Source: Raphidiopsis brookii D9
GTDB taxonomy: Bacteria > Cyanobacteriota > Cyanobacteriia > Cyanobacteriales > Nostocaceae
DNA: 32,000 bases
Direction: 5' to 3'
Assembly (NCBI GenBank): GCA_000175855.1
Contig: ACYB01000035.1
Coordinates: 450,001-482,000, forward strand
Below the pieces are notes generated by a model. The model had not been told where the DNA came from, did no database searches, and saw only the letters and a program-made list of their open reading frames with translations. Within the stretch, counting starts at the first letter, position 1; the number at the start of each line of letters is the position of its first letter. Below, piece by piece: positions 713-32,000 of the stretch. A program made the position numbers and the translations under genes.

Positions 713-1933
713 CTATGGTGCAAGTGCATTACCACGTAATAAACTGCCAATGGTTTTGGCCGTAATTTTTAACTGGGTGATTGGATTAGCTGGAACTACG
801 GTCTTATATAAATAGCTGTCAAAAGTCAGCTTTTGGACATCCATGTCATCACACATTTCCACAAATGCTTCCCTGGTAGCATCCGAGCGGTAGAACACGG
901 TTTGTAACAGATCCAATACTTTATAGGTAAGTCCGTATTTTTTATCCCAACGCTTAATATAAAGTTTTAATTCCCTTTCACTAGGAATGCGCGCTCCACT
1001 ATTAGACACTTCCACAATGGTCTCCGCACACATTCTTCCAGACTTAGCAGCAAAGTAAATACCTTCACCTGAGGATTTGGTCACATAACCAGCAGCATCA
1101 CCCACTAAAGCAATTCGACCTACTACCCGACGTGGACGGGGATGTTCTGGTATAGGATGGGCTTCTACCTTAATAATTGTACCCCCAGCCAATTTTTCCA
1201 CTGCACGGGCCCGAATACCAGCTTGTAACTGTTTAATACTGGCTTTATTTACATGCATGGTCCCAGTACCCACAGCCACGTGGTCATACTTGGGAAAGAT
1301 CCAAGCGTAAAAATCCGTGGAAACATCATCTCCCACATACATCTCCGCTAGGTTGTTATAGTATGCCATTTTATCTTCAGGAAGACGAATTCTCTCCTGA
1401 AAGGCGATCGCATAATTATAATCCCCAGCATCCATTTCTTTAGCAACACGGGAGTTGGCACCATCTGCACCAATAATTAAATCCACCTTGAGAGTTTTGG
1501 CCACACCAACGGATCCACCCTCATTGTGATCAACATAATGAATTGTATAGGGGTCAGAATTATTATTAGGTATATCTAATTTATGCACAGTGGCATTAAT
1601 TAAGTTAGCACCCAATTTAGCGGCCCGGTTTCTTAAAAAACCATCTAGGACCTCTCTACGACACATCCCTATATATTCTTCTTGGTTAGTGAGATTGATA
1701 TCAACCTCTCGGTTAGAGGGGGAGATCATCTTCATATTGCGTACCCGACGGTCAATAATATCTGCTGGTAGATCAAACTCACTAACCATACAAAGGGGGA
1801 TAGCACCACCGCAAGGTTTAGCATTATCTAACTTACGCTCAAATAAATAAGTTTCAATCCCTGCTTTAGCTAGAGTTTCAGCAGCAGATGAACCAGCTGG
1901 GCCAGAACCCACAACAGCAACTCGTAATGTCAA
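713..1933 (-). CDS. chlP: Geranylgeranyl diphosphate / geranylgeranyl-chlorophyll reductase ChlP
   Basis: 406 aa. It has the N-terminal FAD fold VAVVGSGPAGSSAAE, the KPCGGAIP motif and LVGDAAGYVTKSSGEGIYFA. Length and sequence are typical of cyanobacterial ChlP. Confidence 0.9.
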   Translation of the reverse strand: MTLRVAVVGSGPAGSSAAETLAKAGIETYLFERKLDNAKPCGGAIPLCMVSEFDLPADIIDRRVRNMKMISPSNREVDINLTNQEEYIGMCRREVLDGFLRNRAAKLGANLINATVHKLDIPNNNSDPYTIHYVDHNEGGSVGVAKTLKVDLIIGADGANSRVAKEMDAGDYNYAIAFQERIRLPEDKMAYYNNLAEMYVGDDVSTDFYAWIFPKYDHVAVGTGTMHVNKASIKQLQAGIRARAVEKLAGGTIIKVEAHPIPEHPRPRRVVGRIALVGDAAGYVTKSSGEGIYFAAKSGRMCAETIVEVSNSGARIPSERELKLYIKRWDKKYGLTYKVLDLLQTVFYRSDATREAFVEMCDDMDVQKLTFDSYLYKTVVPANPITQLKITAKTIGSLLRGNALAP

Positions 1934-4628: not shown

Positions 4629-4881
4629 CCATCATCTTCAGGAAATTGCGTATTGCGTATAAGTTTACAAATGTTTTTCATGTTTTGATATTACCCCGAT
4701 GCAGTTTTTAAAAACCCCCATAGAAATTTTCATAATTTCATGATTTTTTCAATTATATGTTTAGCGCAATAAAAGTTCACCTATATCTTTCGATAGGTTT
4801 GATTGTAAATATCCAAATCTCTATCTTAGGAAATAACTTTACAAAAGGTGGGGACTCTCGCGTTATCATGTTGGTGGTTTT

Positions 4882-7881
4882 TCAACTGGGTGGGATTCCC
4901 TCCTCCTCAACAGGACGAATGATTGGTGGAGCGGGGGTAACTTCTGGTCTAAATATTGCTTCTAATGCCGCTTCTAAATTTTGCGCCATGACAATACGGT
5001 TCTCATAAGCTACAATCACTCTAGCTAAGGTGGGTAAACTATTTTGGGTTGCTTCCAAATAAATTGGCTCTACGTACAATAAGGATTTTTGAATGGGAAT
5101 AATTAGAAGATTGCCCTGTACTGCTTTCGATCCTTGACGATTCCATAGGGAAATTTGTTGAGAAATGATGGGATCCTGATTGATCCTAGCTTCTATTTGT
5201 TCTGGACCGTAAATCAACCTTTCTTTAGGAAAATTATATAATAGTAGCTTACCGTAGTTCTCACCGTCAGAACGTGCTGCTAACCAGGCAATTAAATTTG
5301 TTCTTTGTTTTGGCGTGTAGGGAAGTAGTAGGATAAATTCTTCAAAGGGAACACTAGGTAAACTGGTTATCAAATAATAGGGTTCAACTTGACGGGGTTC
5401 TCCGCTATAGATTTCATTGGGAATTTGCCATTGGTCTTCCCGGTTATAAAATACTTGGGGATTGATCACATGATATGTCATTAATCGTTCCGATTGTATT
5501 TTAAACAAGTCCACTGGATAGCGAACATGACTGCGGAGATTTTCAGGCATATTTATCAACGGTTGGAACATTTTAGGGAAAATTCTTGACCAAGTAGTAA
5601 TTAAAGGATCCTCTGGTTTAGCTATATAAAATCTGATGGTACCATTGTAGGCATCAATGATAACTTTTACCGAATTACGAATGTAGTTTATACCATTCTT
5701 ATTGCGATCTGAGTAAGGGTAACTACTACTAGTAGTATAGCCATCAATTACCCAATATAGATAGTTTTTACTATCTTTAATTTGTTGATCTTTATCATTC
5801 AAATTACCATCTGCTGCTACTAAATAGGGTTCGCTATCAAATCTCAAAAAAGGAGCGATCGCCTGAATTCGCTGACTAATATTACGCCTGAATAATATCT
5901 TAGTTTCTGGTAAAAAATCTCGTGTAAAAATCATTGGCCAATCTTTGAAATACATGGCAAATAACCAACGTTTCCACCCAGATCCAATAGTAATTCCCCC
6001 TTGACCATCGTAGGTATTATAAATATTATCTGCACCGCTAGGATAATCTAATTCTTTAACCCTAGTTCCGGTCATGACATGAGTATTGGAAATTTCTCCA
6101 TAATAAATTCGTGGCTCACCAATAGGTATACTCTGATCAATAGCTGCATTAGCTGTAGTTAGAGCTTTACCATTACCACTTATATCTTTGACAAAATATT
6201 CTGGCAACCCTCCAGGTGCAGCTGTATTAACAGGACTAATTGTAAATCCATAACCATGGGTGTAGACTAAACTGCGATTGACCCAAGTTTGTGCTTGGGG
6301 GGGAACAGCATCATAATCTAATTCTCGTGCAGCAATTAGGACTTGACGTTTTTCTGGAACTGTCTGTGGTTGTGTTTGAGTTTCTGTGGTAATTTCTTTT
6401 TTAATCATGTAGCGGTCAATATCCGCATCGGGAAACCGGTAATAGGGACGAATTTGCTGTAATTGACGATTAGTTTTTAAAAGTGGTTCTTGATCCCATA
6501 GTCGAATATTCCTAATAGTTAAATCATTGGCCTTTAGATCGGACCTAGTCAGGTTTTGTTGGGGGTTAAAAGTTTGAGCATCAATGGAGTCTAAATCAAA
6601 TGCTTGACGGGTAAGAGCAATAGTACGTTCTATATAGGGTTTTTCTCTTTCCAGTTCATTGGGTTGTACTACCAGATATTGCATGATGTTGGGTATCATC
6701 CAGTCAGTCAGGATTATTAATCCTGCATAAATCCCTAAGCCATAAATTGCCCATTGATGATGGGGAGATTTGCGATGCCAAAATAAACTTTGCCATAATA
6801 GGTAAAACGCTAAAATAACCGCGCCCACGCAAAGTATGGTATTAGCTGGTAACTGAAAATGCACATCGGTAAAACTAGCGCCAAAACTCACTCCCCGGGG
6901 TGAATACACCAGCTGATAGCGCCCTAACCAATAACTAAAACCTAATCCCAGCATCATCCCACCAGCTAGGGTGAATAAATGACGTTTCTGTTTCGGTGCA
7001 AACCCGGGAAATATACCCTGACTAAGACTATTGCCCGATAGTAAATAGGTAAGAGCAACTGATATGATTCCATATACACATAATCCTAAAAACCAAAAAC
7101 AGAGAATTTCTGCTACTGGTAAAGAAAATACGTAAAAGCTGATATCTTTGCCAAATAAAGGTTCGGTCTGGTTAAAAGCTGTAGGATAAAAGTATAATAA
7201 GACTGTATTCCATCTTTGACATGCTAACCAGCCAAAACCACAACTGATAATTATGGCGATCGCCCACAGCAAAAATTCCCCATACACTAAAATAGCTATC
7301 CCTATCCCTAATGCCAATATAAAATACCTAAATTGAGATATTATCCTGATTAAGATTCGGGGGATTATTTCAGATCTAAATACAATTGTCAAATCAGATA
7401 AATCATCAATTAGGGTACTTGGGTTTCGCCAGTAGCTGATGACCAATTCTCCATACCAGATTAATATTATTCCTATTAACAAGCTCAAACCCAAGGTCAA
7501 TGGTAATAACCAAATGAATTTAATTGGTTGGGTTCCAGTTTCTATGTGTTCTGGTTGATATAGTTGTGGATATTGGGGACTCAAAAACTTTTTGATTCTG
7601 GTACTTAACTTATTTTTTCCTGTAATTGCTGGATCCATCTTCAACTCTTGAGGATATTGCCACTTTTTCGCTAAGGAAAGGTTTCCCCAAAAATATATTA
7701 TGCTCGTCCCAGTAATAATCACCCAGATCATACCCTGAGTTATTAGTCGCACTAGTAAGTTGGGCAAGTAACCCACTTCCTGAAACCAAAAAATTTCTGC
7801 TCCTAAAGAGCACGCTAAGTCTAAACCCAGCCATAACCCCAGGAAAACAATAATAACTTTAACGCACCACTTCCAAAACAT
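4882..7881 (-). CDS. UPF0182-family large integral membrane protein (function unknown)
   Basis: 999 aa. The N-terminal third has about 7 TM helices, followed by a large soluble region with motifs I associate with UPF0182/COG1615 (YYGE...; YPYS; [20 protein letters not shown]). Confidence 0.75.
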
Positions 7882-20761: not shown

Positions 20762-21014
20762 CCTTGATTATTTTGCTTGGTGAGTTTCATCTTAATATAT
20801 CTATATGTGTTTGCCTTGTGAGCAAGGTAAATGTAATCCCTAGGACCTATAATAGTATGATCATTCAAGAAAATATTGATCTGATCGAAAATTAAGACTT
20901 TCTAATTTTTTATTGACACTAAATGTGTGTTAACTGATACTAACATGTTGATTAAATTCCAAAGCTATCCAGTAATTTGGTTATTAAATCACAGTTATGC
21001 AAAAATATGCGCAG

Positions 21015-21045
21015 CACTTAATAACCACTTAATAACCACTTAATA
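21015..21045. repeat. 2.8 tandem copies of the 11-mer CACTTAATAAC
   Basis: Copies at 21015-21025 and 21026-21036, plus a 9-nt partial copy at 21037-21045. The array spans the stop codon (21029-21031) of the ABC ATPase gene. Confidence 0.9.
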
Positions 21046-21781
21046 GGTTGAAAATCAACCGTTTGTAATTTTGAAATTCCCAACTTTGCTTGATTTGGTC
21101 GTATTCCTTGTCTGGTAAAACAATATTAATTTCCTGACGAATTTTGCCAGGACGGGAAGTTAGTACGTAAACACGTTGGGACAGGAAAATTGCCTCCTCC
21201 ACATCGTGGGTAATCATCAAAATTGTGGTTCCAGTTTGTTGCCAAATCTGACGCAAAAATTTCTGCATTGATTCTTTGGTTTGCACATCCAAAGCTCCAA
21301 ATGGTTCATCCATTAATAGTATTTTGGGTTGTGATGCTAATGCGCGGGCAATGGCTACTCTTTGTTTCATTCCTCCTGATAACTGCCTAGGTAAAGCTTG
21401 AGCAAATTCAGTTAAACCAACCACTTCTAAATAGTAAGAAATCGATTGTTTGCGTTTAACAGGGTCAACACCCTGTAGCTTAAGTCCAAAACCGACGTTA
21501 TCAGCAACATTCATCCAGGGATAAAGGGTATAAGTTTGAAAGACTAAACCTCGTTCCTTCCCAGGTCCTTTAACAGGAAGACCATCAACCAAAATTTCAC
21601 CAGCAGTTGGCGTATCCAGTCCAGAAATTAAGCGCAGCAGAGTTGTTTTACCTGAACCAGAAGCACCTACAGCACAAACAAACTCTCCCTGCTCAATATG
21701 TAGGTTAATGTTTTCTAGAGCGTTGAGAGTACCACGTCTAGTTTTAAATTGCTTATGTAGTTCTGAGACCTGTAAATGCAT
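21029..21781 (-). CDS. ABC transporter ATP-binding protein, NitT/TauT (nitrate/sulfonate/bicarbonate) family; last gene of the putative guanidine operon
   Basis: Walker A GASGSGKTTLL, signature LSGGMKQRVAIARAL, Walker [13 protein letters not shown]. 250 aa with no extra C-terminal domain. Confidence 0.88.
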   Translation of the reverse strand: MHLQVSELHKQFKTRRGTLNALENINLHIEQGEFVCAVGASGSGKTTLLRLISGLDTPTAGEILVDGLPVKGPGKERGLVFQTYTLYPWMNVADNVGFGLKLQGVDPVKRKQSISYYLEVVGLTEFAQALPRQLSGGMKQRVAIARALASQPKILLMDEPFGALDVQTKESMQKFLRQIWQQTGTTILMITHDVEEAIFLSQRVYVLTSRPGKIRQEINIVLPDKEYDQIKQSWEFQNYKRLIFNLLSGY

Positions 21782-21820
21782 AAATTTAAACTTTAAAGAT
21801 GTAAACTAATTTTATTTATG

Positions 21821-22612
21821 CTAATTATGAGCCCATCTACAAACCATACGATGTAGCATAACTAACAAAATGTCAATAACCACACCAATCAGACCAATGA
21901 CAATCAACCCAGCAAAAATCTCATCTGTTTTGAGGAATCTTTGAGCTACACTAATGCGTCTACCCAGTCCCTCGGTTGCAGCTACCAACTCTGCTACAAT
22001 CACTAAGTTCCAAGAAGCTGCCATATTAACTCGACAAGCATCAATGATATTCGGCACAATAAAAGGCAAAATCACTTGCAATATAATTTGATGGTTTTTA
22101 CCACCTAATGTATAAGAAGTCTCAATCAATTCTCGAGAAACAAACTTTACCGCATCCATAATCATCAGAGTATTAAAGAACACTGTACCAATAAATATCA
22201 ACAGTATTTTTGGTGTTTCTCCTAAACCGAAATACAAAATCAGCAGGGGAATAAAAGCGGGCGCAGGCATGTAGCGAAAAATACTAATAGCAGGCTCGAA
22301 TAAAGCTCGAACTACTGGAAAACTACCCATCAATACGCCCAAAGGAATAGAGATAACAGCAGCTAATAAAAACCCACCTAAAACCCGTAATAAACTAAAT
22401 CCAATATCTGTTTGCAGGTTACCGGTTGCCCACAGTTTTTGTAAAGCAGTAAGAACTGCTTGAGGGGTTGGCAAAAACAATGGTTTAACTAAACCAGAGT
22501 TGGAGACTACCAACCAAATAAAAACCGGAATAGTGATTGATAAAATCATGAACAACCAAGTTGAATTATCACCAATACCCCAGGAAACGGCGGGAGAATT
22601 ATTTTTTCTCAT
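21821..22612 (-). CDS. ABC transporter permease, NitT/TauT family
   Basis: 263 aa with about 6 TM helices and an EAA-like loop (ETSYTLGGKNHQIILQVILP), typical of BPD-type permeases in this family. Confidence 0.88.
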   Translation of the reverse strand: MRKNNSPAVSWGIGDNSTWLFMILSITIPVFIWLVVSNSGLVKPLFLPTPQAVLTALQKLWATGNLQTDIGFSLLRVLGGFLLAAVISIPLGVLMGSFPVVRALFEPAISIFRYMPAPAFIPLLILYFGLGETPKILLIFIGTVFFNTLMIMDAVKFVSRELIETSYTLGGKNHQIILQVILPFIVPNIIDACRVNMAASWNLVIVAELVAATEGLGRRISVAQRFLKTDEIFAGLIVIGLIGVVIDILLVMLHRMVCRWAHN

Positions 22613-22669
22613 TAATCCTTTGATTGTTTATGAGTTTTATGAGTTTTTGGTATACTAGATATATCCCAC

Positions 22670-23665
22670 CTATTTTTGCTTGGCAGCGTAGGCTTTAACA
22701 AAACGATCATCAAATATTTGACTAAGGTCAGGCACCTTTTTGGCAAGTTTTGCATCAACGAGAAATTTAGCAATTTCCTGAGCTGTATATTTCAATGACC
22801 CTATATTGCTATTAGAACTAAAAGCTTGCAGATTATCCTCAACACTAAAAATTTTAGTTCCTTCAGCATATTTTTTGTATTCATCAACCGTGACTCCAGC
22901 TCTTTTTGCCATGATTTCATTGCTTTTTTCTGGGTTAGCTTTAATGTAGTCTAGTGTCTCAAACCAACTATCAACTAGAGCTTGCACATCTTGAGGACGT
23001 TCTTTAATTAATTGGCGGTTCACTACCAGATGATCGGGAATGGCTCCAGGAAAATCTCGCGAACTGAACAATTCTTTACTACCAGGAAGTTCTAAAGCTT
23101 TAGTAGTAAAGGGTGCAAACACACCGACAGCATCAACCTGACCAGCAACAAATGCTGCGGATGCTGCACCAGTTTCCAAGGGTTGCAAAATAATATCATT
23201 TGAAGTCAATCCAGCCTTTTTCATACCCAGAAGTAATAAGAAATGGTCAACTGTTCCCTCTTCCACTGCTACTTTTTTTCCCTTCAAATCCGCAATGGTG
23301 TTAATACCTTCTCGGACGATAATCTTATCATTGCCAGTGGAATTATCGTTTACTAAAACAATAACTTGATCCGATCCTGCTGCTACGGAGCTAATAGTAT
23401 CATTGAGGGTTTGGCTATTGGCATCCAATTTCCCAGAATTTAAGGCATTAATTGAGTCTAAATAACCATCAAACCACTTGAGATTCACCTGTATATTATT
23501 GGCAGTAAATAGGTTTTCGTTTGCAGCTATTTGCCATGGTATCCATCCAGGCCATACACTAAAACCTACCTGGATCTCTCTACTATCTCCACCATAAGGT
23601 GTACAACTAATTGCCAGCAATAAACTGAATACAAATAGTGTGCATAGGGAAAGTAATTTTCGCAT
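22670..23665 (-). CDS. ABC transporter periplasmic substrate-binding lipoprotein (NMT1/TauA-like)
   Basis: Signal peptide with a lipobox (LLLAISC) and an NMT1/THI5-like binding-protein fold sequence (GFSVWPGW.PW, DAVGVFAPF). Its start codon directly abuts the hypB-like stop with 0-nt spacing. Confidence 0.85.
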   Translation of the reverse strand: MRKLLSLCTLFVFSLLLAISCTPYGGDSREIQVGFSVWPGWIPWQIAANENLFTANNIQVNLKWFDGYLDSINALNSGKLDANSQTLNDTISSVAAGSDQVIVLVNDNSTGNDKIIVREGINTIADLKGKKVAVEEGTVDHFLLLLGMKKAGLTSNDIILQPLETGAASAAFVAGQVDAVGVFAPFTTKALELPGSKELFSSRDFPGAIPDHLVVNRQLIKERPQDVQALVDSWFETLDYIKANPEKSNEIMAKRAGVTVDEYKKYAEGTKIFSVEDNLQAFSSNSNIGSLKYTAQEIAKFLVDAKLAKKVPDLSQIFDDRFVKAYAAKQK

Positions 23666-24367
23666 TTACTTAGTACCTTTTATATCTAAATGGTAATTTG
23701 ACTTAACCTGGGTTTTCACCCAATCACACCAAGTATCCAGTCCCTCATCAGTTTTCGCTGAGAAAGGAATAATTTTGACCCCCGGATTCATCTGTTGGAC
23801 ATTGGTCACAATCTGATTAATATCAGTGTTTAAATAGGGCGCTAAATCTATCTTGGTAATTAACAAACAGTCTGCTGCTTGAAACATAATTGGATACTTA
23901 AGAGGTTTATCTTCTCCCTCTGTGATGCTTAATAAAGCAACTTTAAAGTGTTCACCAACTTCAAATTCAGCTGGACATACTAAATTGCCAACATTTTCCA
24001 CCAAGACCAAATCTAGTTCAGTTGGATTATGTTTGTTTTCTAGTTGATGAATTCCACCAGCTACCATTTGGGAATCTAAGTGACAAGAACGACCTGTATT
24101 AATTGCAATTACCGGAACACCATATTGACGTAAGCGGTTGGCATCTAGTTCTGTGTTCATATCTCCTTCAATCACTGCAATTTTCAACTCACTTGTCAAA
24201 ACAGATAAGCTTCTTTCCAATAGACTGGTTTTACCTGCTCCCGGACTGCTCATAATATTTAGACAGGTGATACCCCAACTGTTGAAGTGGGAACGATTGT
24301 GATCTGCTCCTTCTTGGTTAGCATGAAGTAAATTAATTTCCAATGCAGCACTATAGGTTTGGTGCAT
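23666..24367 (-). CDS. hypB: HypB-family nickel-binding GTPase. In this context it is probably the guanidine hydrolase accessory protein (GhaB-like), not a hydrogenase factor
   Basis: P-loop [12 protein letters not shown], the CH metal motif (GRSCHLD) and [12 protein letters not shown], 233 aa. No hydrogenase structural genes are in the window. Confidence 0.88.
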
Positions 24368-24375
24368 AATCCTCT

Positions 24376-24732
24376 CTACTCTTTTAAACTATATTCAATC
24401 CGCTCTATTTTCAGTTCCCTACCCGAACGAATATCCTCCATGGGATGACAACAGCGCGGACAGCTATATTGCTGACCAATTTCCGGAAGGTACTCTAATT
24501 GACAGGGATGACAAAAGGCAATTAAGGGAATTTCCTTGATTACTAATTTTACTCCATCCAAAAATGTGTTACGTGTTTGTACTTGAAAGGTAAATTGCAA
24601 ACTTGCAGGTTCCACACAGGTGAACTTACCAATCATCAAATGAATTGCGGAAATACGCGGACAACCAGGCTGGGATTCCCACCATTGTTTAATAGTGATA
24701 ATTAATGCCTTGGTCATGTCAGTTTCATGCAA
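24376..24732 (-). CDS. hypA: HypA-family nickel metallochaperone (GhaA-like in this context)
   Basis: N-terminal MHE nickel-binding motif, and a zinc site of CHPC...CPRC (two CxxC). 118 aa. Confidence 0.88.
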
Positions 24733-24735
24733 GGT

Positions 24736-25914
24736 TTAACTCCAATCCACTATTGATTCTTGTCGTGTTTCCATTTCGATATAAGCAGGTTTATCTTTTC
24801 GTGGTAATTGACCAGATTTAATTAAATGTCCCATAGTGTCGCAAATAACACGAGTGGCCATAAGTGAAGTAATGTCACTAATGTCGTAAGGAGGCGACAC
24901 TTCTACTACTTCCAGTCCACAAATTGGGGCACGCTGAACAATTTTACTTAGAATGTAAAGTGCTTCCCGAGGCATAAAACCACCTGGTTCTGGCCAACCG
25001 GTTCCCGGAACAAATCCAGCATCAATACAGTCAATATCGAAACTGATATAAACACAATCTGTACCATCTAATGCTCTTTCTAGGGCAAATTCCACCGCAT
25101 AATCCAGTCCCTTTTCAACAATGTCAGTGATTGTGAGAATATTAGTAGACCGTTGGCGACAAATTTTTACCCCCTGGCGTGGTACTTGCCATCCACCAAT
25201 TCCCAACTGCACCAGATTTTGGGCAGGGGCATTTTTTATGTTGGTGGCATGGAACCATGGACAAGTGTGCATTCTTTCGTCTAGATCCGTTTCTTGTGTA
25301 TCCACATGGCGATCAAAATGAATAATACCCATTTTTTTATCTCCCAAATGTCGGCAAATACCCCTGACAGTTGGGTAGCCAATAGAGTGATCACCACCCA
25401 TAATAATGGGAAACGCACCGGAACTAAAAATGTGGGCAATTCCTTTAGAAATCTGGTCAAATGACTTCTCGTTATTAGCAGGGATGGTAAAAATATCCCC
25501 TACATCACATAGGGTAATTTGTTCTCTTAGATCTACGCCCAATTCAAAGTTATAGGGGGTATATAAAGCGGAAATTCGACGGATTCCTTGGGGTCCAAAT
25601 CTGGTTCCAGGACGGTAAGTGGTTCCAGAATCATGGGGAACTCCCACAATAGCTACGTCATATTCTCCTACTTTCCAGATATCTTCTAAATAGGGAGCCT
25701 TCAAAAAAGTATTAATTCCAGCGTAGTGAGGTAGTTCACCACGAGCAAATGTGGAAATTGTCCGATCATTAATGCTTGCTGCTGCTTCTAGTCCCAACTC
25801 TAAACTGCGAGAAACTTCTTGCTGCCAACCAGTTAATGGTAGTTGTCTTTCTAGTTCTAAGGCTTGTTGCGCTTCACTGTCGGGTCTATTCGGTTGAAAT
25901 TCGTTCATACTCAT
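24736..25914 (-). CDS. gdmH: Arginase/agmatinase-fold ureohydrolase; predicted Ni-dependent guanidine hydrolase (GdmH, Sll1077-like)
   Basis: Ureohydrolase motifs GGDHSIGYP, HFDRHVD and SFDIDCIDAGFVPGTG. At 392 aa it carries an N-terminal extension of roughly 80 aa over typical SpeB. It is the first gene behind a guanidine-I riboswitch and is followed within 3 nt by hypA-like and then hypB-like genes. An AAGGA Shine-Dalgarno sequence lies 11 nt upstream of the ATG. Confidence 0.8.
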   Translation of the reverse strand: MSMNEFQPNRPDSEAQQALELERQLPLTGWQQEVSRSLELGLEAAASINDRTISTFARGELPHYAGINTFLKAPYLEDIWKVGEYDVAIVGVPHDSGTTYRPGTRFGPQGIRRISALYTPYNFELGVDLREQITLCDVGDIFTIPANNEKSFDQISKGIAHIFSSGAFPIIMGGDHSIGYPTVRGICRHLGDKKMGIIHFDRHVDTQETDLDERMHTCPWFHATNIKNAPAQNLVQLGIGGWQVPRQGVKICRQRSTNILTITDIVEKGLDYAVEFALERALDGTDCVYISFDIDCIDAGFVPGTGWPEPGGFMPREALYILSKIVQRAPICGLEVVEVSPPYDISDITSLMATRVICDTMGHLIKSGQLPRKDKPAYIEMETRQESIVDWS

Positions 25915-25988
25915 AACATAATATCCTTAGATTGAGGATTTTGGATTTTAATTCCTAGACCCAGAATTTCCATTGGGATTGGATGTGG

Positions 25989-26052
25989 TTTAAAACCACA
26001 AAGCCCAGGAGAGCAAATACAGTGCCATGACTGCTATTTACTTCTCCCGGGC
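25989..26052 (-). terminator. Riboswitch expression platform: an intrinsic terminator whose 5' arm is the 3' conserved segment of the aptamer
   Basis: On the minus strand, GCCCGGGAGA (26052 to 26043) pairs with UCUCCUGGGC (26012 to 26003) with one G-U pair. UUUGUGGUUUUAAA follows (26002 to 25989). The overlap with the aptamer implies that ligand binding prevents termination (an ON switch). Confidence 0.6.
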
Positions 26053-26150
26053 TTTTTTCCCTCCGTGTAGTTACTCTCTAATACTAGAAAATAACTTGCC
26101 TCTCTCGGACCTGCATTTTGTTTGGTAATTAAAAACCGGAACCCTAGAGG
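26041..26150 (-). promoter_or_regulatory. Guanidine-I riboswitch aptamer (ykkC class)
   Basis: The minus strand reads CUAGGGUUCCGG (26147-26136), then GGUCCGAGAG (26111-26102), then ACACGGAGGGAAAAAAGCCCGGGAGAAG (26068-26041). These are the three conserved blocks of the ykkC/guanidine-I consensus in the right order and spacing, about 125 nt upstream of the first gene. Confidence 0.85.
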
Positions 26151-26305
26151 CTATTTGTTGATTTTTCCCACCTAACAATCTAGTTTAAAATACTAGGTGC
26201 AGGATAAATTGGTTGATGAATTCGTTATACATTTAACTGGGATAATAACATGTTAATGGTAATAAACTGTATATAAAACTACAAAATTCTCAAGAATGTT
26301 TATAC

Positions 26306-27142: not shown

Positions 27143-28714
27143 GTGTCAAAACCTAGCGACAAAATCATAACTGGGTCCGGGGACCAATCTCCCAAGATTG
27201 GTCGTCGTCATCGCAAACACAGGTCTCAAGACCACACACAAAAGACAACTGCAAAAACTGCCCAAAGGACACAATCAAAACCGGCTAAGATGCAATCTAT
27301 GGGTCTAAACTATCAACAACATGTTAAAGTATTACCCACAGGTGCCTCTAATAAGCATGAACGCAATGAAACTGATAAAGTAAGGAAATCACAACGCCTG
27401 GTAGTATCCGGTAATGTGAAACCTACTCCTAAGCTATCTAGCAAAATGACCGGGAGTAACCCCAAGGTCAAAACATTACGTGTACCCGCACATCCCAAAA
27501 AATACGCCCATCCATCCCGAAAAGCAAGGTTAAAACCAGCAGCTAATATTATTTTGTATGCCTTGCGACTGTTAATTGTGGGGGTGGGTTTGGGTGCAAT
27601 TGTGGGCACCCTATTGTCAGTGTTAGACCCGGCCAATCGAATTACCACTAACTCCATTAATCCACCTGTAACTCCAAGTTCTTCCCCCCAATCTCCCATT
27701 AATAGTTCCGGACTGGTCATATCTCGGGAAATTACCCCTCTGAAAACCACTATCGAAAACCTATCAGCAGCTAACCCTAATCTCATCCCCGGTGTGTTTA
27801 TAGTGGATATAGATTCCGGTGCATATGTGGATGTTAGTGGGAACAATAATTTCCCCGCAGCTAGTACTATTAAGATACCAGTTCTAGTGGCTTTTTTAGA
27901 GGATGTTGATAGGGGCAAAATTCGTCTCGATGAAATCTTAACTATGGAGCAAGAAATGGTAGCAGGAGGTTCTGGTAATTTAAGAACTATGCCTGTAGGT
28001 ACTAAGCTGAAATCCATTGAAGTAGCTACCAAAATGATGACTATCAGTGACAACACTGCTACAAATATGTTGATTAGTAAATTGGGAGGGAAAGAGTTAT
28101 TAAACTCCCGTTTTCGTAGTTGGGGACTAGTAAATACTGCCATTCAAAGTCCATTACCAGATTTAGAGGGTACTAATACTACCTCTCCTAAAGAGTTGGC
28201 CAGCTTAATTGCCAAAGTTAATCAGGGTGAATTAATATCCATGCGATCGCGTGATTTGATGTTGGATATTATGCGACGTACCCAAAGGGATGATTTATTA
28301 CCTGCTGGGTTAGGGGAAGGAGCGACAGCATATCATAAAACCGGTGATATTGGGACAATGTTAGCAGATGCTGGTTTGATTGATGTTCCTACGGGTAAAC
28401 GTTACATTGCTAGTATTATGGTGAAACGTCCTCATAATGAACCTGCTGCAGCAAAGTTAATCAATTCTATATCTCAAGCCACTTATTCTTATTTAAGTCA
28501 GAGTAATTTCTCCCCTGATGGTTCTACCAATAATCAACCATCAAGCAATCAAAGGTTAAATAATTCTTCCACTCCATTTACCCAACCATTTCTCCAACCT
28601 CAAGGTGGCAATTCAAATATTCCCAATGCTACAATCAACAATGCACCCCTGGGAAATTATCAGTCTCCTCTGAATAATCCCCCATATTATCCACCACAAT
28701 CTCATCCGAACTAA
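27143..28714 (+). CDS. Membrane-anchored serine hydrolase with a class-A beta-lactamase fold and low-complexity termini; GTG start
   Basis: SxxK (ASTIK), SDN (ISDNTATN) and KTG (HKTGD) motifs in the right order. The basic N-terminal roughly 130 aa is followed by one TM helix (IILYALRLLIVGVGLGAIVGTLL). The C-terminal tail is rich in N, Q and P. Confidence 0.75.
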   Translation: MSKPSDKIITGSGDQSPKIGRRHRKHRSQDHTQKTTAKTAQRTQSKPAKMQSMGLNYQQHVKVLPTGASNKHERNETDKVRKSQRLVVSGNVKPTPKLSSKMTGSNPKVKTLRVPAHPKKYAHPSRKARLKPAANIILYALRLLIVGVGLGAIVGTLLSVLDPANRITTNSINPPVTPSSSPQSPINSSGLVISREITPLKTTIENLSAANPNLIPGVFIVDIDSGAYVDVSGNNNFPAASTIKIPVLVAFLEDVDRGKIRLDEILTMEQEMVAGGSGNLRTMPVGTKLKSIEVATKMMTISDNTATNMLISKLGGKELLNSRFRSWGLVNTAIQSPLPDLEGTNTTSPKELASLIAKVNQGELISMRSRDLMLDIMRRTQRDDLLPAGLGEGATAYHKTGDIGTMLADAGLIDVPTGKRYIASIMVKRPHNEPAAAKLINSISQATYSYLSQSNFSPDGSTNNQPSSNQRLNNSSTPFTQPFLQPQGGNSNIPNATINNAPLGNYQSPLNNPPYYPPQSHPN

Positions 28715-30164: not shown

Positions 30165-31385
30165 TTAAACCTCTTCGATCAGTGCTAAAACTTGTTTGGG
30201 TAATAATTTTTCTTTAAACCAAATAATTTTGGCAGGAACATTATCCAATTTCACCCCGGATTTTTCCAGGTTCAACTTTTCAGAAATTGCCAGAATGAGG
30301 TTATGACAATTTGCTCTTTTCACCTGGGCAAATTTCTTTTTTAAATATTCCGGTTGCCAATAGCCAACAATTTCTAACAAAAAACTCCTTCCGTCAGGAT
30401 GCACAAAACGAAAGTCTGGTATGATTACACTTCCAGGGATGGGAATTAAATCTACTTCTCTTTCTAAAAACCAACCAGTTTTCATAGCATCCCATTTATC
30501 AGCGAAGGAATGGTCTAACATGCTGTCGTATGGTTTACCTTGGCGATAATGAGAGATTAGACCACATTCAGAATTTAGGGTAAATCTACTGGTTTTCCAT
30601 TCCTGGGTATATGGGTCTTTTATTTGCAAGGTGGTTGATAAACTCCATTTAGTCACATGGAGCAAAGCTGGGATCATTTTAGCTATGGATAATCCGTATC
30701 GCGTACTGGAGGTAAATAAACTTGTTGGACCATCAATGGTGATTGTGAAACCGTGGTTTCCATCACCCTCAATATAGGCCATTAACTGAAATAATTTTAG
30801 ATATCGAAATAATAATTTATATTCTCTTGGTGAATTACGGTGAGCATTTAAGATTAATTGGGTAGCTTTATAGAAAATACCTTGCACCTGGGATAAGTTA
30901 TAACGGTGTAATAGGTCTTCTGGTTTAGGAACATCAAATGCGGTGAGGATTCTATTTTCCAAGAGATCAGCATAAAGACCTTCAGCAATCTGAATTGGTA
31001 AGATTTCCCTTTGCAGTTCTTGACTAAGGTTGGCAGCAATTTGGCTAAAAATTATCTCGGTGTTTTGGGGACTAGCAACTGATCGAGCTGCTAGGGTGAA
31101 TACCTTTTCCCTTAACAGTTGTGGTTCTAGGGGACTGATAATTTCAAAATTGCAAAAACTACTTTTGAGGATGTAGCCTAAACCGCGTTTCATTCTATAG
31201 TCTGTGGTCTCACCCTCAAAATCTATAAGTTGTCTTTCCAAATATCCTTGGGTTTTTCCTAGAGCATCTTGAAAAAAGTTAATTAAATTATTTGCTAGGG
31301 CTAAATTTTTATCATCCAGTTTCAGTCTCTTGGGAATGATTTCTTCTCCGGTTTGACGATAAATCAGTAGTTCAGTCGGTAACAT
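30165..31385 (-). CDS. DUF790-family protein (Bax1-like nuclease partner of XPB helicase)
   Basis: 406 aa. The C-terminal PD-(D/E)xK-like core is IPDFRFVHPDGRSFLLEIVGYWQPEYLKKK. Its start overlaps the upstream helicase stop by 14 nt. The size and the pairing with an XPB-type helicase match the DUF790/Bax1 family as I recall it. Confidence 0.7.
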   Translation of the reverse strand: MLPTELLIYRQTGEEIIPKRLKLDDKNLALANNLINFFQDALGKTQGYLERQLIDFEGETTDYRMKRGLGYILKSSFCNFEIISPLEPQLLREKVFTLAARSVASPQNTEIIFSQIAANLSQELQREILPIQIAEGLYADLLENRILTAFDVPKPEDLLHRYNLSQVQGIFYKATQLILNAHRNSPREYKLLFRYLKLFQLMAYIEGDGNHGFTITIDGPTSLFTSSTRYGLSIAKMIPALLHVTKWSLSTTLQIKDPYTQEWKTSRFTLNSECGLISHYRQGKPYDSMLDHSFADKWDAMKTGWFLEREVDLIPIPGSVIIPDFRFVHPDGRSFLLEIVGYWQPEYLKKKFAQVKRANCHNLILAISEKLNLEKSGVKLDNVPAKIIWFKEKLLPKQVLALIEEV

Positions 31386-32000
31386 CTTTTTGATGCTTTG
31401 ATTTCGTTAATTTCTTGGTCAAGTAGTTAATTTCTGTCGGTTGGGCAACTTTTGTTTCCAGTTCTTGATTATCCCCATATACAATGCCTAATTCACCTTT
31501 TTTCCTTTTTTCCTCCGGTCTATTTCCAGAGTGTGTTTCCATACCTCTTAATCCCTTTCTTCTGATTGATGTTCCTTCTTCACTCGTATCTTCTGCTATG
31601 ACTTCATATAAAATTGCCCGTTTATTTCCTTGATTTCCTTTCCTTAAAATTCTTCCTAACCTCTGAGTATATTCCCTGATAGAACCAGTACCAGAAAGAA
31701 TAATAGCCACCGCAGCAGCAGGAACATCTACCCCCTCGTTTAAAACATGGGAAGCTACTAAGGTAGTATATGTTCCTTGCTTAAATTTGGTGAGGATTTC
31801 GTGTCTCTCTTTAACTGGGGTTTGATGGGTAATTGCAGGAATTAACAACTCCCGGGAAATACGATAAACCGTGGTGTTATCAGCTGTAAAAACCAACACC
31901 ATTTCTGGATAGTGATCAGCCAGTAAGTCAGCTAAAACTCTCATTTTCCCCTCCGTTCCCAAAGCAATCTCTTTTGCTTGTCGATGCGCTAACATAGCTC
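31372..32000 (-). CDS. XPB/Rad25/ERCC3-like SF2 DNA helicase, C-terminal part (5' end outside the window)
   Basis: Helicase C-terminal domain with motifs IV-VI (VLVFT; ERHEILTKFKQG; LVASHVLNEGVDVP; SGTGSIREYTQRLGRILRK). The frame is open to the window edge at 32000. A charged tail of about 70 aa follows motif VI. Confidence 0.8.
   Translation of the reverse strand, partial: AMLAHRQAKEIALGTEGKMRVLADLLADHYPEMVLVFTADNTTVYRISRELLIPAITHQTPVKERHEILTKFKQGTYTTLVASHVLNEGVDVPAAAVAIILSGTGSIREYTQRLGRILRKGNQGNKRAILYEVIAEDTSEEGTSIRRKGLRGMETHSGNRPEEKRKKGELGIVYGDNQELETKVAQPTEINYLTKKLTKSKHQKDVTD

Follow-up and report, generated by a model that had tools for sequence, protein, structure and literature searches.

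Do the six minus-strand genes between positions 25914 and 21029 in a 32,000 nucleotide (nt) stretch of the Raphidiopsis brookii D9 genome (contig ACYB01000035.1) represent a Mn-dependent agmatinase for polyamines, hydrogenase maturation factors and a sulfonate/nitrate importer that are neighbours by chance, or do they form one system for the import and hydrolysis of guanidine? The former would follow from the GenBank names of the D9 proteins, i.e. 'Putative agmatine ureohydrolase', 'Hydrogenase accessory protein HypB', 'TauA, ABC-type nitrate/sulfonate/bicarbonate transport system' and 'nitrate ABC transporter ATP-binding protein'. The latter was the original prediction, which had expected misleading labels of exactly this kind. 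The whole 32,000 nt stretch is hereafter called the window, and coordinates of its features are in window numbering.

Our analysis gave a probability of roughly 0.9, for identity and function alike, that in R. brookii D9 the locus is orthologous to gdmH-ghaA-ghaB-gimA-gimB-gimC, the system by which cyanobacteria assimilate guanidine. Observed directly were the identity and order of the parts, the orthology to a characterised enzyme, the architecture and conservation of a riboswitch with its terminator, and an NtcA-type promoter motif (Table 1). In the open reading frame (ORF) listing, the six genes were separated by 3, 8, 0, 57 and 39 nt, and their strand, order and junction lengths were exactly as predicted. 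The same order recurred in most of 80 related cyanobacterial loci with enough flanking sequence; these were the best 80 of at least 580 relatives obtained by a genome-contig scan, with neither Synechocystis nor a Raphidiopsis representative among them. On the basis of this recurrence and the E-values, the six-gene arrangement is not attributable to chance. Five submitted proteins were letter-for-letter identical to GenBank records of R. brookii D9 (EFA72970 to EFA72975), the HypA-like protein not being among the five. No hydrogenase, urease or tRNA gene was found in the window, as had been stated earlier for the first two.

Table 1. Features of the guanidine locus in the R. brookii D9 window.
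Feature	Position	Strand	Description
gdmH	24736..25914	-	Predicted Ni-dependent guanidine hydrolase, arginase fold, 392 amino acids (390 if the ATG at 25908 is the start)
ghaA	24376..24732	-	HypA-type nickel metallochaperone paralog, 118 amino acids, TTG start
ghaB	23666..24367	-	HypB-type nickel GTPase paralog, 233 amino acids
gimA	22670..23665	-	Predicted guanidine-binding lipoprotein of ABC importer, 331 amino acids; start codon abuts ghaB stop (TAAATG)
gimB	21821..22612	-	ABC importer permease, 263 amino acids; BPD_transp_1
gimC	21029..21781	-	ABC importer ATPase, 250 amino acids
Guanidine-I riboswitch aptamer (RF00442)	26042..26158	-	Rfam 79.5 bits against gathering score of 63, E-value 8.1e-13, model positions 1-107 of 107
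Intrinsic terminator of expression platform	25992..26053	-	52 nt hairpin at 26053..26002, -30.8 kcal/mol; U-tail UUGUGGUUUU at 26001..25992
Predicted NtcA box GTAGTTTTATATAC	26269..26282	-	Perfect GTA-N8-TAC
Predicted -10 box TATTAT (TAN3T)	26242..26247	-	21 nt downstream of NtcA box; implied transcription start near 26235

Hydrolase, putative nickel chaperones and importer

Families were assigned to the six proteins by Pfam and NCBIfam searches, which placed the hydrolase in the arginase family (E-value 2.9e-77). When it was compared with all solved structures, the top match was Synechocystis Sll1077 (PDB 7ESR/7OI1; 752.7 bits, E-value 7.7e-226), aligned gap-free over residues 3–385 and ca. 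85% identical. The second was 9FEK (579.2 bits), which is the guanidinase of Nitrospira inopinata (PMC11410670). Proclavaminate amidinohydrolase followed in third rank with 163 bits, whereas guanidinobutyrate, guanidinopropionate and metformin enzymes reached only 140–157 bits and solved agmatinases only 121–130 bits. Agmatinases (SpeB) thus differ clearly in score, although they have both arginase fold and binuclear metal-ligand motifs in common with the D9 hydrolase. They are Mn enzymes with agmatine as substrate, and are not known to be accompanied by a riboswitch or Ni chaperones. Owing to the score gap between guanidinases and agmatinases, the phylogenetic question raised with the original prediction is answered: judged by sequence, the hydrolase is a GdmH ortholog of the Sll1077 type, as proposed, and not an agmatinase. 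Its identity to solved guanidinases is high enough to settle fold and family.

Residue-level features agreed with this assignment. The binuclear metal-ligand motifs of the arginase family were complete (GGDHS173, DRHVD201, SFDID291), the equivalent of the active-site W305 of Sll1077 was W307 (chain numbering), and the GTGWPEPGG block was identical. The cyanobacterial C-terminal extension (residues 369–386 of 7OI1) was likewise present, with the alignment to 7ESR reaching residue 385; both the active-site Trp and the extension have been described (PMC11410670). By analogy with the Synechocystis enzyme, guanidine would be the substrate of the D9 hydrolase and its activity would depend on nickel. 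Enzymes on the neighbouring ureohydrolase branches take guanidinobutyrate, guanidinopropionate or metformin, so that not free guanidine but a substituted one (methylguanidine or a small guanidino acid, for example) could conceivably be the compound handled by enzyme and importer. This is very improbable, considering the low scores of these enzymes, the high guanidine specificity reported for a GdmH ortholog (PMC12186494), and the riboswitch of the window, which fits the guanidine-I consensus at all conserved blocks.

The start of gdmH was ambiguous (25906..25919, minus strand). In D9, the sequence reads ATG AGT ATG AAC (MSMNEF, 392 amino acids), and gdmH of Cylindrospermopsis raciborskii begins where D9 has the second ATG (MNEF, 390 amino acids). 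A two-codon, out-of-frame mini-ORF (ATG TTA TGA, 25919..25911) overlaps the gdmH start codon.

The 118 amino acid protein encoded next was a HypA (E-value 5.3e-28; TIGR00100 109.6 bits against a cut-off of 88.1). Its TTG start yields the N-terminus MHE, the nickel-binding end of HypA, and two CxxC motifs (CHPC74, CPRC91) were found. The 233 amino acid protein was a HypB (TIGR00073 304.1 bits against a cut-off of 121.2; HypB structures with E-value 3e-48), with the P-loop SPGAGKT, the CH...C nickel site (CH95, NVGNLVC) and TKID all present. The two genes occupy the positions of ghaA and ghaB in Synechocystis, and ghaA was directly 3′ of gdmH in nearly all of the 80 loci. In the D9 genome, hupS, hupL and hupW are missing and a hypABCDEF cluster is located apart from this locus (Stucken et al. 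2010); the genes in the window are therefore extra paralogs, as in Synechocystis. Family matches, motifs and placement all agree with their proposed identity as GhaA and GhaB, and following the Synechocystis work, they may serve as nickel chaperones of GdmH in D9.

The remaining three genes, at the same locus as gdmH, encode a binding protein of NitT/TauT type, a permease and an ATPase. The binding protein belonged to the NMT1/SsuA family (TIGR01728 235.5 bits against a cut-off of 163.5), its next-best NCBIfam match was TIGR03427, a 'urea-carboxylase-associated' binding protein, and its N-terminus MRKLLSLCTLFVFSLLLAISC was read by eye as a lipoprotein signal. These genes correspond to Synechocystis sll1080-1082, renamed gimABC (PMC12704784), and the original view of the 'sulfonate' transporter as a guanidine importer thus finds its counterpart there. 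Synechocystis GimA binds guanidine with a dissociation constant (Kd) of 97 nM, gimA and gimB mutants do not grow on 0.1 mM guanidine, and the guanidinium site reported for Sll1080 consists of W59, W62, D135, F205 and D233 (PMC12704784). In an alignment of the window protein and 53 orthologs (the best 120 of 4722 homologs did not include Sll1080), W38, W41, D113 and D211 were invariant and the F183 position was aromatic in 54/54 sequences. Mapping was by offset and conservation: shifted by 21–22 positions, these five residues agree with the Sll1080 site in type as well as in spacing, and they may form the corresponding site in D9. By extension from Synechocystis, the D9 transporter would have guanidine as its ligand.

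The agmatinase equivalog TIGR01230 did pass its cut-off on the hydrolase, by 0.4 bits (174.7 against 174.3), and no guanidinase model was among the NCBIfam matches. That this model just passes on a guanidinase ortholog is probably the reason for the widespread mislabelling as agmatinase. TIGR00100, TIGR00073 and TIGR01728 passed their cut-offs as well, and with the agreeing GenBank names these scores are what speaks for an agmatinase, hydrogenase maturation factors and a sulfonate/nitrate importer having met by chance. Such an interpretation is effectively refuted by the 752.7 bits to GdmH against at most 130 to solved agmatinases, by the guanidine riboswitch preceding the genes, by the cluster being kept as a block in most of the 80 loci, by the lack of uptake hydrogenase genes and the separate hyp cluster in D9 (Stucken et al. 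2010), and by the binding of guanidine at 97 nM by the orthologous binding protein (PMC12704784).

Riboswitch, terminator and NtcA-type promoter

The guanidine-I riboswitch upstream of gdmH was the only Rfam family to reach its gathering score anywhere in the window. A riboswitch and a terminator before the hydrolase had been predicted, and both are real according to Rfam and folding; the upper limit of 26150 given for them was too low, since the Rfam match spans 26158 to 26042 and the riboswitch consequently extends 8 nt further. On leader folding, the 5′ arm of the terminator, AGCCCGGGAGA, was the 3′ strand of aptamer stem P3, so that terminator and aptamer overlap, which is the standard design of an ON switch. 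A riboswitch homolog was located upstream of gdmH in 72 of the 80 loci, and a P3-overlapping hairpin followed by a U-tract in 59/62, with inner hairpin sequences that vary and yet stay paired. The ligand is probably guanidine (ykkC subtype 1) and not guanosine tetraphosphate (ppGpp), phosphoribosyl pyrophosphate (PRPP) or another subtype 2 ligand, to judge from the downstream gdmH and from the orthologous RF00442 leader of Synechocystis, which binds guanidine with a Kd of ca. 58 µM and switches expression in vivo (PMC12704784).

Upstream of the aptamer, the predicted NtcA box and -10 box conform to an NtcA-type promoter, defined as GTA-N8-TAC followed after ca. 22 nt by a TAN3T -10 box. Such a promoter was present at this position in 19/58 related loci and in 0.55% of random 300 nt controls, i.e. 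ca. 60-fold enriched. The NtcA box was invariant in the C. raciborskii loci, in which the -10 box is TATCAT, still TAN3T. NtcA control of Synechocystis gdmH has been shown experimentally (PMC12704784), and the D9 promoter agrees with it; on the motif, activation by NtcA is predicted for D9.

A second NtcA-like site (GTATAACGAATTCA and TAGTAT, ca. 26230..26190) was rejected on account of two mismatches and a spacing broken by a 12 nt indel in C. raciborskii. Between promoter and aptamer (26183..26214, minus strand), 12 nt of the D9 leader were absent from three C. raciborskii-type sequences (alignment columns 94–105). Aptamer and terminator were nearly identical between D9 and the C. raciborskii type, with loop indels of 2 nt and 1 nt and one substitution. 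Another perfect GTA-N8-TAC palindrome inside gimB (22271..22284) is most likely fortuitous, as 6.7 such sites would be expected by chance in the window and 5 were present.

Among the related loci, one (L057) had its importer detached from gdmH and a second guanidine-I riboswitch (locus positions 1092..1202, plus strand) ca. 100 nt upstream of gimABC, a link of importer to guanidine that does not depend on where the importer lies. In L050, a second guanidine-I riboswitch (4930..4816, minus strand) was located on the opposite strand and directed at another gene, away from gdmH. Loci L037 and L038 had the order ghaA-ghaB-gimA-gimB-gimC-gdmH, with gdmH last, and no riboswitch was detected anywhere in either locus. 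L038 (titled Sphingobacterium thalpophilum) and L010 (titled Candidatus Gracilibacteria) carried typical cyanobacterial gdmH clusters with 83% protein identity, although both are labelled as metagenome-assembled genomes (MAGs) from outside the cyanobacteria; their contigs are probably mis-binned rather than products of horizontal transfer.

One transcript or two

Whether the importer genes share the riboswitch-gated transcript of gdmH depends on the junction between ghaB and gimA, which was 0 nt in D9, in C. raciborskii KL1 and in two metagenomic contigs; the spacer of the relatives had a median of 108 nt (range 3 to 1683 nt). No hairpin-plus-U terminator was found in the internal spacers, nor any terminator-like hairpin in those of 57 nt and 39 nt. 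An NtcA-type promoter upstream of gimA was absent from the window and, at perfect match, from all 53 relatives (0/53). The 500 nt upstream of gimA contained a lone NtcA-like site, which deviates at one position and is 447 nt from gimA, the background being ca. 8% per 300 nt. Because of the 0 nt junction, the lack of internal terminators and the lack of an NtcA promoter before gimA, the D9 locus looks like one transcript, and from this anatomy we consider it somewhat the better supposition that all six genes are expressed as a single riboswitch-gated unit. The layout agrees with the one transcription unit of the original prediction, which stands as an inference from anatomy, the Synechocystis importer being transcribed separately.

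Several observations weigh against a single transcript. In Synechocystis, the importer genes form a separate transcriptional unit, TU794, and the NtcA-dependent promoter of this unit has been verified with a green fluorescent protein (GFP) reporter (PMC12704784). A sigma-70 scan for an internal promoter was uninformative (18 sites against 17.0 expected), which leaves room for a promoter inside the ghaB coding sequence. At the other end, no U-tract terminator was found after gimC in the 267 nt before the next gene, which encodes an MscS-type channel, and the 3′ end of the operon is thus undefined. A long AT-rich hairpin, GGUUAUUAA...UUAAUAACC, without a U-tract, begins 2 nt past the gimC stop (20978..21027, minus strand).

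A division into two units as in Synechocystis, with gdmH-ghaA-ghaB gated by the riboswitch and gimABC transcribed from a promoter in the 3′ part of ghaB, would make import independent of intracellular guanidine. TU794 is its precedent, and the ghaB-gimA spacer of most relatives is roomy enough for a promoter. In D9 that spacer is absent, the sole NtcA-like site in the 500 nt before gimA is mismatched, distant and at background rate, and even relatives with spacers have no perfect NtcA-type promoter there. We therefore regard two units in D9 as a lesser, though substantial, possibility.

With a single transcript, a further step may be considered tentatively, at slightly under even odds: the Raphidiopsis/Cylindrospermopsis importer would have lost a Synechocystis-type NtcA promoter and become fused into the riboswitch-gated gdmH transcript, so that the importer would be expressed only once some guanidine is inside the cell. 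If true, the fusion would lead to autocatalytic, switch-like induction dependent on leaky read-through or endogenous guanidine, and the known system would then exist, with its regulation varied, in a toxic bloom former unable to fix N2.

Outside the cluster, the rest of the window was housekeeping in content (cobalamin synthesis, citrate synthase, NDH-1 subunits, NAD kinase, RimM, the MscS-type channel, a SpoU methylase and a class-A beta-lactamase-like protein). The beta-lactamase-like protein (27143..28714, plus strand) had its class-A beta-lactamase-family domain at residues 217–427, between a long N-terminal region of basic, low-complexity sequence and a C-terminal tail rich in Pro, Asn and Gln; a 276 amino acid ORF antisense to its gene (27313..28143) is probably spurious. 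At 30165..31995 (minus strand), the gene of a DUF790 protein (406 amino acids, E-value 8e-147) is directly downstream, with a 14 nt overlap, of an ORF that continues past the window end and encodes a helicase C-terminal domain of ERCC3/XPB type. C. raciborskii KL1 has psb28 and dprA in place of this pair, which may represent a strain-specific insertion.

Relation to known systems and nitrogen supply

Sll1077 was identified as a guanidine-degrading enzyme by Wang et al. 2021 (PMC8390497), and nickel dependence, accessory chaperones and growth with guanidine as the only source of nitrogen are credited to Funck 2022 in the accounts given by PMC12704784 and PMC12186494. Itzenhauser et al. 2025 (PMC12704784) reported that gdmH occurs widely among cyanobacteria, often at one locus with gimABC, and that NtcA controls the locus. 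Given these three studies, the arrangement of sensing, import, maturation and degradation is already described: the system is known, and the D9 locus is an unstudied ortholog of it. The original prediction had rightly taken the hydrolase core for a described system; the complete arrangement, in which it saw the chief interest, is indeed present in D9, and it too is in the literature as a whole. The 2025 paper (PMC12704784) makes no mention of Raphidiopsis or Cylindrospermopsis, and no literature on guanidine use in these genera was found.

The closest likeness was to sll1077-sll1082 of Synechocystis sp. PCC 6803, with the identical six-gene order, the RF00442 aptamer in the gdmH leader, an NtcA-type promoter before gdmH, and a public annotation misleading in the same manner. 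The sole departure found was in the importer, which has its own NtcA promoter and transcript (TU794) in Synechocystis, in contrast to the 0 nt junction without such a motif in D9. The hosts differ in that D9 is a filamentous, non-diazotrophic, saxitoxin-producing bloom former. The operon of N. inopinata (9FEK; PMC11410670), which uses guanidine as a nitrogen source, shares with D9 a GdmH-clade enzyme behind a guanidine-I riboswitch; it has an APC permease, neither an ABC importer nor nearby Ni chaperones, and its guanidinase is without the C-terminal extension present in the D9 protein. Guanidine carboxylase operons of proteobacteria, e.g. Raoultella and Klebsiella, likewise combine a guanidine riboswitch with an ABC importer of the same broad NitT/TauT family, but rely on ATP-dependent carboxylation instead of Ni-dependent hydrolysis and have no HypA/HypB paralogs (PMC12186494).

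On this background, a course of events may be proposed for D9. Under nitrogen limitation, NtcA would activate the promoter ca. 75 nt upstream of the guanidine-I riboswitch. Without guanidine, the terminator of the leader RNA would form with the 3′ strand of P3 as its 5′ arm, and transcription would stop before gdmH; with guanidine bound, P3 would be kept in the aptamer, the terminator could not form, and read-through would follow. GimABC, by its lipoprotein binding protein, permease and ATPase, would then import guanidinium, GhaA and GhaB would load Ni2+ into GdmH, and GdmH would convert guanidine to urea and ammonium, the urea entering the urea assimilation of the organism. Against this reading of the locus counts that all three of substrate, metal and induction are carried over from Synechocystis, the identity being ca. 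85% for GdmH and lower for the other proteins, and that the binding residues of GimA were placed by offset and conservation, not by direct alignment to Sll1080.

D9 makes guanidinium-bearing toxins, and a system whose main task is to detoxify guanidine produced internally in this saxitoxin producer (e.g. from arginine or in the metabolism of guanidino compounds), and not to collect external guanidine for nitrogen, would suit both this trait and a riboswitch that senses an intracellular ligand. GdmH also protects ethylene-producing cyanobacterial strains from endogenous guanidine toxicity. We nevertheless consider detoxification as the main role unlikely: an ATP-driven importer with a homolog of a high-affinity binding protein and an NtcA-type nitrogen-starvation promoter point to acquisition, no sxt genes were found in the window, and no literature linking toxin turnover to free guanidine was found. 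A specific link to saxitoxin was rejected, as neither sxt nor any other guanidino-metabolite gene was located in the window and no connecting literature was found.

Assimilation of external guanidine hence stays the preferred function, in an organism whose growth is supported by nitrate, ammonium and urea and which is unable to fix N2. The significance is modest, as no new kind of biology is opened, and the remaining interest is small, comprising the misannotation, possible guanidine use by a toxic non-diazotroph, and a compact, possibly single-transcript layout. A dedicated guanidinase family model would fix the annotation in hundreds of genomes. The compact layout, if expressed as a single transcript, would be a natural contrast to the two-promoter design of Synechocystis for engineering guanidine-inducible expression. 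For the ecology of blooms, it is relevant to their nitrogen supply that a non-N2-fixing, harmful-bloom cyanobacterium, R. brookii D9 together with its C. raciborskii relatives, carries a complete and apparently intact machinery for guanidine nitrogen.

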